Shown one piece after another: positions 1 to 6,010 of a stretch of DNA of 64,000 nt (positions are counted from its first letter, which is position 1; every line of letters begins with the position of its first letter). The position numbers and the translations under genes are program-made. This stretch comes from Camelus ferus (Eukaryota), in contig NC_045696.1 in the NCBI RefSeq assembly GCF_009834535.1, forward strand, positions 81,532,001-81,596,000, in the 5' to 3' direction. The notes beneath the pieces are model-generated. The model worked only from the letters and a program-made list of their open reading frames with translations. It was not told the origin of the DNA and ran no database searches.

Positions 1-510
1 CCGGCGCGTGACGCACCACGCTTTGGTATAAATACGAGCGGCGCGGACGCTGCGTTCTCTCATCGCGCGGCCGGCTTTCCAAGATGGCGCCGGTGAGTGT
101 GCGTGCTCTCCGCTGGACTATTTTACTCCGATATAGATGATTTTTGCAGCTCGCGAGTTGGGGGCGTCTCATTCAGATAAAGGGAGGGTGGGAATGGAGA
201 CTCAGGTCAGGAATACAACCAAAATGTTAACGTTGTAGGCATTTTTGTGGCCCCTGGCAGCTGCCATGCGGTCTGGTGGAGTTCGACCTGGGCCCGGAGT
301 TGGCTTAGGATGGGCGGCCGTGGGAGCGTGGGGAAGAAGGCACGACGGCGAACGGGGCTAGGGGACAGCATTTGGGCCGTTTCTTTTCTCTCGCGCGCGG
401 ATGCTACCCTATTTGCAGCAGAAAGCCAAATGTGTCTAATCGGGCTAGTCTAATGGCCTTGCCAGGGCGGAGGCAGAGCCGAGGCTCTCGGCTCCCGCGA
501 TAGCAGCGGT
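1..510 (+). promoter_or_regulatory. RPL22L1: CpG-island promoter/first exon region of RPL22L1
   Basis: Dense CpG. CRE-like TGACGCA at 9-15, TATAAATA at 27-34, pyrimidine TCT/TOP-like initiator TTCTCTC at 55-61 (~30 nt after TATA), YY1-like CAAGATGGCG at 80-89 overlapping the ATG. This layout is typical of ribosomal protein genes. Confidence 0.88.
84..92 (+). CDS. RPL22L1: RPL22L1 coding exon 1 (MAP)
   Basis: AAG ATG GCG CCG followed by the consensus donor GTGAGT at 93-98. Confidence 0.95.
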
Positions 511-1753
511 TACAGAAGTTTCAGAGAACTTTAAAACTGTGTTGGGGAAGAAGTTTCTTCATTACCTCGTGAAAGATAAAAGTGACGATTCTTAGGCAAA
601 TTGTAAAAGAGTGTTTCAAAGGTTTTTATTAATAAGGGAACCAGTGAGATGTAAAAGCCGGCCCAGAAAACATTTGAAATGTTAGGGTAAAATTGCTGGG
701 ATATATACAGAACTAATGTTCAATGGGACCATAAACACTCTGGGCTTATCTGTTCCACCAGACAAATTATTTGCGTTTCTTATGTTAACTAATGCCCCAA
801 CAGAACTATAAATTGACCACTAAGGCCCAACTCCTAGTAACTAGTTAACCTAGTTTCCAGTCCCAGGTTTTGGATAAATTTTGGGGGCACAAGTTATTCC
901 ACTGCCTAAGAAAGCCTCGGTAGCTGTTTGGGTGGATTTTACTTAAGTATTCTTATTCTATGGTATTGGTCTAAAAGGTTTGGGATTAGAAAACTTTAAG
1001 TTACACATATTTTTCAAATTAAAATTACTGTCAGACCTCTCCTGCCTTTCCCTCACCCATAGCAGCATAAGAAGTGAATTCTGTAGACATAAGTGGGTGA
1101 AATATCCTGTTCTGGCGTGTGATTGAGCTTGGACTAAGTGGTGCACTACCTGTTTCCCGTCTGCAGTGGGGATGGCAGTAGTGAAGCAGTTAAACAGTAC
1201 CTGGTAATTTAAAATTGAATATTCGTGGTATGGAAAATAATAAAAGCCCACAAAACTTTTCTTGATAACTCAAACACAGTGGGCCTGGTTAGAGGTTCAC
1301 ACCATCCCTGGTGGGTATTTTTTAGGTTTAACTTGTAGTAGAAAGTAGGCTGATCCTTTTAATCTTTTCCAGTTGCAAAAATAGGGTTTGGAGAATCTTC
1401 TGATGAAGGAAACTAAGTAGCTCACTATATACGTCGAACTTAATCTTGAGTTTTGTGCTTGTGAGACACTTGTATGACGAACAGGGAAAATTTCCATAGG
1501 AGTTCACGAAACTTGGTTTTTAACCAAGTTGATGAGAGTACTCCCCTTCAGACAGCCTGGTTGAAAAAAAGGGTATATCCAGTAGATACTAAAGCACTTT
1601 TTTTTTTTTAGAACCTTACACTACTTTATATATACAAACACACACACATCGCCTCACAACATGTTGTACATTATTGCACTGATACAGATTTTTTATTTTG
1701 TATGTAAAGTGAATAAATTATTGTAGAGAGTCATAATTATTAACTTTCTGTAG

Positions 1754-1846
1754 AAGAAAGACAAGAAGCCTAAGAAGTCAACCTGGAAGTTTAATTTGGA
1801 CCTTACTCATCCAGTAGAAGATGGAATTTTTGATTCTGGAAATTTT
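1754..1846 (+). CDS. RPL22L1: RPL22L1 coding exon 2 (KKDKKPKKSTWKFNLDLTHPVEDGIFDSGNF)
   Basis: Acceptor ttctgTAG at 1751-1753 and donor GTAAGT at 1847. The 93-nt translation matches the eL22 N-terminal motif F-x-(L/I)-D-x-T-H-P-V-E-D-G-I. Confidence 0.97.
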
Positions 1847-1947
1847 GTAAGTATCACTTCAGTCAGTTTGTTTTTATCATTATAGTAAAGTTCTTAATGA
1901 TGAATTAAGTATGTAATATTTGATTTTAACCTAAGCTCTATTCCTAG

Positions 1948-2014
1948 GGTACCTTCCCTAGTGAATATCTAGGGTTTTCTTCCCTAGTGTGGCACTTTTT
2001 CTTTTTAAAAATAG
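1948..2014 (+). other. RPL22L1: Alternative 67-nt 5' extension of RPL22L1 exon 3 (unproductive 'b'-type isoform)
   Basis: Acceptor ctattccTAG at 1945-1947 with a branch-like TTTTAAC at 1924-1930. Its use shifts the frame to [27 protein letters not shown] and stops at TGA 2029-2031. An upstream alternative 3' splice site of exon 3 is known in human RPL22L1. Confidence 0.75.
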
Positions 2015-2136
2015 GAACAGTTTCTACGTGAGAAGGTTAAAGTGAACGGAAAAACTGGAAATCTTGGGAATGTTGTTCACATTGAACGCTTCAAGAATAA
2101 AATAACAGTTGTTTCTGAGAAACAATTCTCTAAAAG
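2015..2136 (+). CDS. RPL22L1: RPL22L1 coding exon 3 ([40 protein letters not shown] + first 2 nt of R)
   Basis: Acceptor AATAG ending at 2014, donor GTTGGT at 2137, 122 nt. Contains the eL22 motif [10 protein letters not shown]. Confidence 0.97.
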
Positions 2137-2579
2137 GTTGGTATTCGTTTTCCATGATTTTTTTGAAATGAAACTAATTGCGGAATATTTATAGAATATG
2201 TAATGTAGTATTCTCTGTTCACATGCAAAAACAGGTATGTTGTTAATGAGGTCAGTGAGATGTCAGAAGTACTTTGAACTTATTAAAGGCTGTATGAAAG
2301 GAAGATACATTCAGTAACAGTGCCAGTTACTTAGGCTGATTGTCAGTAAGTGATTTATTGCTGGAATATAGGCAAGTTATGTCCAGGGCTCCTGTCCAGT
2401 GAATTAGAGGCCCTGTAATCAAATTGTACGTAAACTTTAACAATGTTGCATGCTTTGATACTAGAATATGTTTCCAGAAACTTGTCTATTGTGTCAGAGG
2501 GGAGTGATGTGCCAGCTTTCTTAGTTTTGGCCATCTAGTACAGATAACCACTAATGTTAGTCTTGCTACCAGTTTCTGT

Positions 2580-3250
2580 TCATGCAATTTGCTTGACAGA
2601 TATTAAATACTTGACACATGGCAGCACTGTTGCAAGACTGAGCAGCCTAGCAGTGAACCAAGCAGACTAAGGACCCACCACCAAGGAGCTTAAATTCTAG
2701 TGGAGAAGAGATGAAATGCAATATTAAATACTTAACAAGTGCATAAAGTGGGCAGAAAATTTCATCTAAATGAAATGCAACAGTGAGCCATGCAAATTAA
2801 AGAATTGATCATTATGGCTGAAAAAGTTTGGTAGTGGAAACTGAAAACTTAGACTGTTGCAGTAAGAGATGATGGTAGCTTGGACTAAGGTGGTAGCAAG
2901 CAGTGCATGTTAGCTGTGGTCGTGAGTTAATCACTAGGGATTTGGAGATGAAGTATCTGTCCTCAAGGATCATATAGACATGTGGATAGTTGTTACACAT
3001 GCAATTCGGTAATTGCTGTATCTTTGTCATAGGGCACAAGGATTTTCAGAGAAGCTGAGGATAAGCTTAGTGTTGCCAGTGGAATGGGGTATTTCTAGCA
3101 GAGGGAGTGGCACTGACAGCAAGAGGCAGGGAGGTTTGAGAGGAATGCTTGGTAGTTCAGATGGGAATGAGGCTAGGGGAGCTGATCATGGTGGAGGGAA
3201 TGTTGACATTTTAGTACAAGATATTTGAAGAATGAGAACTGTATGTTAAT
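2580..3250. mobile_element. Degraded L2 LINE fragments in RPL22L1 intron 3
   Basis: L2-like motifs such as caaggagcttaaattctagtggagaaga and gagatgatggtagcttggactaaggtggtag. Boundaries approximate. Confidence 0.55.
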
Positions 3251-3559
3251 TTTTTTTAATGTAGCAGTAAGACTGAAAAGGAAGGTACTATTACTGCTCT
3301 CCTGCATGGGTCTCCAACATAAAGTTTATTTGGGGGGTGGGAGGTAAAGGGTTTGTGGGGCATAAACTGGTTCTAATTGAGGTTGAGATGCTCCCTTACT
3401 GTATTCCTAGCAACCTTGCACAATGCTTAATACAAATGAAAGAAAATATTGTGGAGGGAACTGGGAACACACAAGATGAATATGACAATGCATGTCTTAA
3501 ATAATAAGCCTTTACATAGTAGATACTATGTTTTATGAAATTCATGTTTTTTTTTAAAG

Positions 3560-3704
3560 GTATTTGAAGTATCTAACCAAGAAATACCTTAAGAAGAACA
3601 ATCTTCGTGATTGGCTTCGTGTGGTTGCATCTGACAAGGAGACTTACGAACTTCGTTATTTCCAGATTAGTCAAGATGAAGATGGATCTGAGTCTGAGGA
3701 TTAG
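3560..3704 (+). CDS. RPL22L1: RPL22L1 coding exon 4 ([48 protein letters not shown])
   Basis: T-tract plus AAAG acceptor ending at 3559 and TAG stop at 3702-3704. The spliced CDS is 122 aa, the length of human RPL22L1, with the [14 protein letters not shown] signature and an acidic tail. Confidence 0.97.
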
Positions 3705-3736
3705 GTGAAGCCACCCATTATAGGGCTTTGCTTGCT

Positions 3737-3742
3737 AATAAA
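3737..3742 (+). terminator. RPL22L1: Polyadenylation signal AATAAA (proximal); a second AATAAA lies at 4007-4012
   Basis: AATAAA 33 nt after the stop codon. Short 3' UTRs are typical of ribosomal protein mRNAs. Which signal is used cannot be read from sequence. Confidence 0.6.
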
Positions 3743-5254
3743 ACAAGTGACATATGTACAAGAGGAAAAGACATCTAGAAATTGACCTTTGGTTTATCAG
3801 TGAATGAAAAGCATTGTACTCTGTTAAGCATTCAATTTAAGTATATACTGTTTACATGGTGCTAGCTTTCCTTTAATATTTTCTATAAGCAATATTTAAA
3901 TAGCTAAGTGGAATTTCCCCCAGGATTTCTGAACTGTATTGCTTTTTAAAATGTACCAGTATAGTATAGGAAAAAATGAAGCACAATTTGGGGCATAACT
4001 TTATATAATAAAATATTTAAAATTCTCGTGACAGTCTCAAATACCTTTGTACAGTTTGTAACTGCAGTCCTGAGTGCCTTGAACAGTTCTTGCACATAGG
4101 TGTTCAGTATTAAATCGCTCCTGCACTTTACTTCATAGGAGCAACTTTTCTAATTAGCATAAAGGTTCTGAGTTGAGCATGGTACTGGTGTAAGCAAGTG
4201 TTTGATTGCCTATTAGAGATCTCCATCCAAATGCCTTGTAGGCACTAGAAACTCAAAACTTACATCTGTACTCTTCCGTGGTTCTTGTGTGAAAAATTGA
4301 AGTTTACTCAGACGGTTCAAATCTTCATGCAACTCCACTGCACTGATCATTATAAAAATGTTGGTCTTCAGTTGCTTAAAACTTAGCAGTGGATAGACTC
4401 TCCCAAATCAAGTGACCTTAGAGAGCTGTTTAACGCTGACGCCCACTGTGGATTGGGTATGTTTCCTGCAGGGCCCAAATGCACGTTTCACCACAGTGTG
4501 AGGCTCTAATCATATATGTGCTCATAGTTAATCTGTCTTTCCCAGTATAATTGGAATTGTTCTAAACAATTTCTTATTTTCAAGACAAGCTAGAAAAAAG
4601 TTTAAAAAGACAGGAACATACTGTCCTAGTTGTCCCAAAACACCACAGCTTTGTATAAATTCTTGGTGAATATCATAAGAAAGCAACATAATCTTACATA
4701 ATTTTGTTAAAAAGAAAATATTTTTGTGTATATACTTATGTTATTATTAAGTGTATTACAAATGAAAACTGTTGCAAATTACTTGTAAAAACCTGCATAA
4801 TTGGATGAAGGAAAGCATCACCCATCTGGGTGACAGGGCCCCTGAGAAAACACCCCAGGTTTGGGTGACGTGGCAATCAACGTGTTAAGCAGAATGGTTT
4901 GTCAAAATCCAAATTGCAGGAGAGGAGAGAATAATGGGAAGGGGTATTAGCCGTATCAGTTTGGTTTTCCAGTGCCAAGTTATGTGCCTTTTTCTACTTT
5001 TAAGGTGAAGGTGGTGTTAGTACCTCAGGTACTTAAATGGGCCCTGGGCCCTGATACCAATGGAATCATTGCCATATAGGTCTTGACTATTACACCCTAA
5101 TACTGATTGATATAATTGGTTTGGGAATGTTTCAGGAATTTTATTTCCCTTATTAAGAGCTTGTTTAAGTACTCCCCAGAATTGATGCACAGCAGGCCTT
5201 ACCTTAACTCTGCGTGCTCTTTGAATTGTTCGTGTTTTCCACCAATAGTTACAA

Positions 5255-6010
5255 ACATCCAACTGTGCTTGTTCTGTTGAGCATTGTGGGTGCAGTGGAA
5301 TAAAAACTGTTTCCTGGTATGGTGAGGGAAACACCAAATAATTACATAAAATCTTAAGTACAACAAAGGAGGGGCTATTTAAAAGGAATTTGATGCAGTC
5401 AAGGAAGGCAACTGAGGAAGTGTTTGAGCTGACCTAGGATAGGTAATCTCTGGGTAAAGAGAACGGTGTTCCAGGCAGAGGGAACAGCATAGATCAAATT
5501 CTCAGAACGTCGGGAATCTGGTTGCTATACACTGCATCTGAAATAAAGTGATTGGTTTATAAGAAGAACCTGGAAAAGCAAGTAGAAACTAGCCCATGCA
5601 GGGCAGAAGTTGATGCTTTTAATCTTGAGAGCAGTGGAAGGCTACTGAATTTCAAGTGCCTTGAGGGTGGTGAGATGCAATGAGGAGTGCATTTTGAAAA
5701 AGATCAGTGGCTGCATTACGACGAATGGTTTCCAGTGGCAGTCACTGGATTCAAGGAGACAGGAGGCCATGGCAGTATCCTGTGGATAGCGGTAGTCAGG
5801 ACTGAGATGGTGGAGATGGAAGAAGTAGGTAGATTTTAGAGATTCTTGTAGAGGATAAAGTTTGTGGGACTTGGTGATGAACATTGGTGGTAAGGGAGAA
5901 GTGTCAAGGGTGACATACAGTGGGCTTAGAAGGTGGCGTTTGCTGAGTTGGGTAACAAGGGAAGAAGGCAAGAGTAGGAGGAAAGTTCAATTTAGGCCAC
6001 GTTAGTTGCT
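5255..6010. mobile_element. Degraded L2 LINE
   Basis: ccaggcagagggaacagcat, ttttgaaaaagatcagtggctgc and gatggtggagatggaagaagtaggtagattttagaga are typical L2 segments. Confidence 0.6.

Follow-up and report, generated by a model that had tools for sequence, protein, structure and literature searches.

The locus described here raises two questions: how the choice between two 3' splice sites is made for exon 3 of RPL22L1, and whether an array of complementary hexamers in the preceding intron acts in that choice as a conformational switch. The window (the whole 64,000-nucleotide stretch of Camelus ferus DNA that was analysed) contains RPL22L1, a spliced model of which translates to a 122-aa product. 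Within intron 2, the hexamers CTAGGG (1944-1949 and 1969-1974) and CCCTAG (1956-1961 and 1982-1987) alternate so that all four helices possible among them are perfect 6-bp stems. A preliminary description of this DNA placed the hexamers, the two AGs and a branch-like TTTTAAC correctly, and its view that eL22 regulates a structure at the alternative acceptor of exon 3 agrees with published work; it went on to propose a switch in which eL22 bound to a hairpin of hexamers 2 and 3 would favour the upstream AG. We conclude that the element is real, deeply conserved and already described, and that the best explanation of it, to which we give a probability of roughly 55%, is a tandem pair of eL22 hairpins combined with a shared branch point and blocking of the distal AG. 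The switch as first proposed is very unlikely.

All features of the gene given below lie on the forward (+) strand. In the spliced model the ATG exon occupies 84-92, exon 2, which ends in phase 0, 1754..1846, exon 3 2015..2136 and the last listed exon 3560 onward, and intron 2 up to the productive acceptor (1847..2014) has GT..AG ends. Sequence and translation place a pyrimidine tract at 1995-2006 and the productive AG at 2013-14 (together 1995..2014), while the alternative, poison AG lies 67 nt upstream at 1946..1947, within the 5' arm of the first of the two hairpins described below. Splicing to the poison AG adds 67 nt and opens an out-of-frame exon 3A extension (1948..2031) that ends at a TGA (2029-31) and gives a 61-aa product; the stop lies 105 nt upstream of the last junction, well beyond the 50 nt that a PTC must exceed for AS-NMD. 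On translation, splicing to the AGs of the remaining three hexamers leads to early stops too. Human RPL22L1 has the same 67-nt acceptor spacing in the part of the account covered (PMC10325915), and a rise in rpl22l1 NMD transcripts is described for upf1 zebrafish in excerpts of another (PMC7354994). Use of the upstream AG, as the preliminary description had it, is directly evident in a spliced record from another mammal (L003), in which exon 2 is joined exactly to the AG equivalent to 1946-47. Separately, the water vole RPL22L1 model P0046 carries a 9-residue insert before exon 3 that matches use of the hexamer 4 AG, 27 nt upstream, in what is a gene model only.

The genome itself holds a single RPL22L1 retrocopy, a decayed processed copy of the productive isoform that contains stops (L006, G000:C9:80370256-80370375), and no second copy of RPL22L1 intron 2 was found in it. 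The three remaining matches belong to RPL22: L008 and L009 are processed copies of it, and L007 resembles an intron-bearing RPL22 gene.

The array reads best as a duplicated hairpin, and the alternation of a hexamer with its complement is the appearance that such a duplication takes. Hairpin 1 (1939..1967), seen in both the MFE and the ensemble and with its pairs kept in a bird, pairs hexamers 1 and 2 (1:2) in an upper stem (1944-49/1956-61) closed by the neck pair G1949-C1956 over a U...UU loop (1950-55), and continues below a bulged U1962 into a 5-bp lower stem (1939-43/1963-67). Hairpin 2 (1969..1987), which rests on folding, the direct repeat and a human primer, pairs hexamers 3 and 4 (3:4; 1969-74/1982-87) under the neck G1974-C1982 with a U...UU loop (1975-81). 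An 11-nt direct repeat with a spacing of 26 is common to the two hairpins, and both units read stem, U...UU loop, stem, U. Both also present the eL22 consensus, a G-C neck with G on the 5' side and a 3' loop U; these features of 1:2 and 3:4, like the lower stem of hairpin 1, had been missed in the preliminary description. The 7-nt linker between them (1962..1968), of fixed length and variable sequence, had there been taken for the loop of a 2:3 hairpin and is instead a paired strand of the hairpin 1 lower stem. From A1929 to the AG at 2013 every AG except one at +5 falls within a stem. The four-hexamer pattern has one match in the 2,087,093,976-base genome, against 0 for a reversed control and about 1e-4 expected by chance; a single-hairpin pattern gave 3 further genome matches and its control 4, and these we take as chance. 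Rfam curated models gave nothing over the element and one chance match elsewhere in 1-4500. A 13-nt inverted repeat (85%) between 1920-1932 and 2034-2046 joins the branch-like site with exon 3 and could sequester that site after exon 3 transcription; no equivalent was among the repeats listed for the bird locus.

The four hexamers can fold in two registers, tandem (1:2 + 3:4) and nested (1:4 enclosing 2:3), and the outcome of folding depends on the flanks. For the bare 44 nt the nested register is the MFE structure, with a probability of 0.82, yet this is uninformative because any duplicated hairpin gives near-equal registers; among 5000 random duplicated 6-bp hairpins, the registers were at most 1.5 kcal/mol apart in 94.5%. 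With flanks included, P(1:2) was 0.82-1.0 in 9/9 contexts for the window, where the nested fold had 0.001-0.18, and 0.91-1.0 in 9/9 for the bird locus, where nested was again minor in 9/9. Hairpin 3:4 fell to a probability of 0.02 in 1/9 bird contexts. The nested fold was predicted to lie above the tandem by 0.9-4.3 kcal/mol in the flanked window and by 1.5-3.4 in the bird. Hairpin 1:2 dominates with flanks because the 5-bp lower stem, which uses the supposed 2:3 loop, is then gained. On these predictions the working fold is tandem, and the modelling does not favour a flip between two folds.

Conservation of the element was examined in DNA from one bird locus and one spliced mammalian record that is without most of hexamer 1. 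A scan for the exon 3 motif gave two loci in metagenome contigs, 0 in prokaryote genomes and 0 in viral contigs; the exon 3 of the genomic locus L002 is 100% identical to named bird proteins. Between this bird locus and the window, all 24 hexamer bases are identical, against 8/13 in the loops and 4/7 in the linker, with a spacing of 6/7/7 and the same G-C necks in both hairpins. Hexamers 1 and 4, whose conservation had been put forward as a test of the proposed switch, are thus both conserved. The upper stems show no variation in the DNA compared. In the lower stem of hairpin 1, 5/5 pairs are kept in the bird through two two-sided changes and a one-sided one; this covariation, in two sequences only, is not significant (119/500 shuffles; P about 0.066), and we regard the retained pairing as suggestive support for the lower stem. 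Loop 1 starts with U and ends with UU in the window, L003, the bird, a frog and two polypterids (isoform-forced in the frog and the polypterids), and loop 2 ends in UU in the window, L003 and the bird and is forced to do so in a shark isoform. In the polypterids loop 2 starts with C, as read from the isoforms. The linker is 7 nt in the window, L003 and the bird, and also in the frog and bichir isoforms.

Exon 3A peptides extend the comparison. In nine named mammals the codons over hexamers 2-4 are unchanged in 9/9, synonymous positions being invisible to such a reading; the count left out 10 of 19 proteins, one an unrelated repeat protein and nine unnamed, and three of those left out (P0003, P0006 and P0014), which look like decayed retrocopies, have changes over hexamer 2. 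The narwhal exon 3A isoform P0015 has D rather than G as its first extension residue, which would imply A at 1949 and a broken hairpin 1 neck unless compensated. In mouse the codons over the linker differ at 1965-66. Non-mammalian isoforms were taken from 120 listed of 143 matches and their cluster mates, and their readings are drawn from gene-model proteins rather than DNA. In database isoforms of frog, reedfish and bichir, exon 2 is read in a frame shifted by one base and joined to an upstream acceptor that gives a 70-nt extension, with the same module at 7/7/7; the frame test applied to them was passed by 0/3000 random pairs. The polypterids show an A to G change in hexamer 2, a U-G wobble compatible with both registers. 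A sawshark isoform, in which only hexamers 3-4 are readable, fits hairpin 3:4 at 28 nt before exon 3. Searches seeded with the shark and reedfish isoforms returned no further intron-reading isoforms. On DNA or protein evidence, the module and its frameshifting acceptor appear to reach birds, frogs, bichirs and, in part, sharks.

The position of the branch-point-like site suggests how two hairpins might govern acceptor choice. TTTTAAC (1924..1930), with the candidate branch point A1929, lies 18 nt from the poison AG and 85 nt from the productive AG; within 100 nt of AG 2013-14 there is just one further yUnAy-like word, at a distance of 91 nt. The bird has a matching branch-like word 17 nt before its upstream AG, and neither the window nor the bird has a consensus yUnAy-like word 18-40 nt before the productive AG. 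One shared branch point is favoured because a branch-like word precedes the poison AG and none is near the productive AG. Our working model is accordingly worded as a proposal: a duplicated eL22-binding hairpin would separate the productive acceptor from its single, distal branch point A1929. In RNA free of eL22, the four AGs in between would be hidden in the two stems and about 45 nt looped out, so that AG 2013-14 would be used and RPL22L1 made. Free nucleoplasmic eL22 would bind the G-C/U loops of both hairpins, and the loaded hairpins would keep the branch point from being joined to the distal tract and AG. Hairpin 1, the branch-proximal one, might then be melted by the spliceosome and AG 1946-47 used at BP+18, with frameshift, PTC and decay as the result. 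The dependence of acceptor choice on eL22 and the CLIP peak at this site were shown by others; the fold prediction, the conservation, the acceptor use in other species and the PTC come from the present analysis; which hairpins eL22 occupies, that the branch point is shared and how blocking occurs are our inferences. The melting of hairpin 1 is assumed, and a point against this explanation is that every predicted state pairs AG 1946-47 (unpaired probability 0.000), so that eL22 that stabilises hairpin 1 should hide it. Helicases pull on the RNA 3' of the branch point. In the preliminary description, pairing was supposed to conceal AGs and to make the way from A1929 to AG 2013-14 shorter, an idea that fits the predicted anatomy.

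The alternative that survives best, and that we consider possible at well under half the weight of the shared branch point, keeps the same tandem eL22 hairpins and gives the productive AG its own non-consensus branch point in or just after hairpin 2, so that eL22 on hairpin 2 would block U2/U2AF and the upstream acceptor would win via A1929. From the end of hairpin 2 to exon 3 there are 25-28 nt in the window, the bird and the shark, a distance within the usual branch zone (human average 29 nt), and the human upstream site was scored stronger than the downstream one. Against this, besides the want of a yUnAy-like word noted above, the As in that zone are paired or are poor fits.

A less probable alternative reverses the switch: the nested fold would be the eL22-free, productive state, and eL22 on two loops would pull the RNA into the tandem, poison state, each hexamer serving two partners. 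Several of the findings given above are as such a device would have them, namely hexamers that are invariant between window and bird while the loops differ, codons over hexamers 2-4 that are unchanged in the named mammals, compatible in the frog and, for hexamers 3-4, readable in the shark, a single clear change (in polypterid hexamer 2) that suits both registers, and a linker that is always 7 nt. The nested fold also rises to 0.17-0.18 in some contexts. There is, moreover, a precedent in the yeast RPL22A/B introns, in which an Rpl22-family protein likewise controls the splicing of a paralog through intron structure and which toggle between two folds under Rpl22, according to the passages covered (PMC13630204). 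The yeast stems, however, are mutually exclusive and have different outputs, with a stall before step 1, whereas in RPL22L1 the same AGs are hidden in either register and what is decided is the 3' splice site. A protein-gated switch should expose a functional signal differently in its two states, yet the same four AGs are paired in both folds and the effective branch-to-AG distance is 41 nt in the tandem against 43 nt in the nested fold (85 nt linearly), so that the reversed switch has no obvious output. Tandem is also predicted to dominate in the RNA without protein, hairpin 1:2 is fully formed prior to hexamer 3 transcription, refolding by a direct path, without branch migration, meets a barrier of 17-21 kcal/mol, which is an upper bound, and one of the four pairs of the nested flank stem is broken in the bird.

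What remains in favour of the reversed switch is the identity of the stems, for which MDM4 offers another cause. Just downstream of MDM4 exon 6 in the same genome lie three G-C/U hairpins built on one stem, CAGAG/CUCUG (G000:C23:15062790-15062960; L021 about 5090-5260), and a protein preference can explain such identity since MDM4 too repeats one stem, in its case three times. Jansen et al. (10.1101/2023.12.29.573614, in part) describe three L22 motifs of MDM4 intron 6, which share the G-C neck, the 3' loop U and the repeated stem with RPL22L1 and differ in lying downstream of a 5' splice site, in causing exon skipping and in having been tested by deletion, point mutation and RIP. The pattern YAGRG-U..U-CYCUR, which was derived from the RPL22L1 and MDM4 hairpins themselves, finds only 1:2 and 3:4 in the 64 kb and only the three post-exon-6 hairpins in 30 kb at MDM4, with 0 antisense matches in each; the 2:3 stem falls outside it. 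It failed in its one independent test, in which 30 kb at UBAP2L gave 0 sense matches and one antisense. The likeness of the MDM4 stems suggests that eL22 prefers more than three bases, and a sequence preference of eL22 is a reasonable, if unproven, cause of stem identity; the alternative cause is a need for cross-pairing, and the hexamer 2 change seen in polypterids is compatible with either. On account of the near-invariance of four identical stems, we leave the reversed switch a small but real chance. On a related point, a pair of neighbouring G-C/U hairpins that both have UCUUG/CAAGG as upper stem (L028-L030, minus strand, G000:C21) lies about 19,490-19,545 nt downstream of the UBAP2L Lig-domain exon and begins about 20-30 nt after AATAAA; they may be eL22 sites at a poly(A) site.

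That the hairpins set a baseline acceptor strength and eL22 acts indirectly or elsewhere (an exon 2 hairpin, SRSF4 or other factors) seems improbable to us. Such an arrangement would accord with the excerpts of Weinstein et al. (PMC12035866), which report eL22-dependent exon 3A use and predicted hairpins, with no RPL22 CLIP peak in RPL22L1 and with SRSF4 cited as a regulator of the acceptor, and with the zebrafish eL22 hairpin of O'Leary et al. (PMC3750023), which lies in exon 2, acts on spliced mRNA and was necessary and sufficient in mRNA reporters. The part of Fan et al. covered (10.1101/2024.08.15.608201), however, places an RPL22 GoldCLIP peak and two stem-loops over the site and finds cDNA-expressed RPL22L1 not repressed; the consensus bases are conserved, and homologous motifs are required in MDM4 in the portion of Jansen et al. 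cited above.

Least probable of all is the mechanism of the preliminary description, in which eL22 on hairpin 2:3 frees AG 1946-47: the G-C neck and 3' U that it relied upon are indeed present in the window and the nested fold is indeed preferred by the bare 44 nt, but nested is minor in all flanked contexts, forcing 2:3 brings 1:4 to 0.999 and leaves the AG paired, the stem is not of the kind shared with MDM4, the loop is already engaged in hairpin 1, and its 3' base, a U in L003 as in the window, is a C in the bird and by inference (forced) in the sawshark isoform.

The two tandem stem-loops at the acceptor are already known for human. Jansen et al., in the passages covered, report juxtaposed L22 consensus sites in RPL22L1 intron 2 from RNAfold, and the human gene and the window share the 67-nt alternative acceptor and the juxtaposed consensus stem-loops over it; the equivalent stretch of the window folds as 1:2 + 3:4, and the human primer of Fan et al. 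covers hairpin 2. The human papers differ from the present account in that the passages covered contain no hairpin mutagenesis, branch point, lower stem, conservation beyond human or second register. A literature search likewise gave, among the texts that it covered, no paper on a second register, a branch point or vertebrate conservation for the RPL22L1 hairpins. According to Howard et al., transcripts from the distal acceptor are lost, and proximal ones unchanged, when the WDR5 WIN site is inhibited and ribosome subunits are thereby depleted. Structures between a branch point and a distant 3' splice site in yeast (PMC9508853 and its refs 76-78, in part) resemble the arrangement proposed here in that stems shorten the effective distance and hide AGs, and differ in not being known there, in the parts covered, as ribosomal-protein-gated.

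Were the unlikely reversed switch to hold after all, RPL22L1 would carry a device common to jawed vertebrates, in which four interchangeable hexamers, flanked by the one branch point and the true acceptor, pass by branch migration between a nested, eL22-free and a tandem, two-eL22 fold, and free eL22 is read cooperatively as 3' splice site choice. Such a device, a vertebrate equivalent of the switch in the yeast RPL22 introns, would account for stems that appear constant between sharks and mammals next to loops that have drifted. To the tandem eL22 hairpins that we prefer, this study adds the lower stem, evidence on how far back the conservation goes and the hypothesis of a shared branch point; should a fuller eL22 stem consensus hold, it would aid the search for other targets. 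RPL22 is often lost in MSI cancers, and these then rely on RPL22L1 (PMC12035866, in part); the element that gates its expression is therefore of practical interest.
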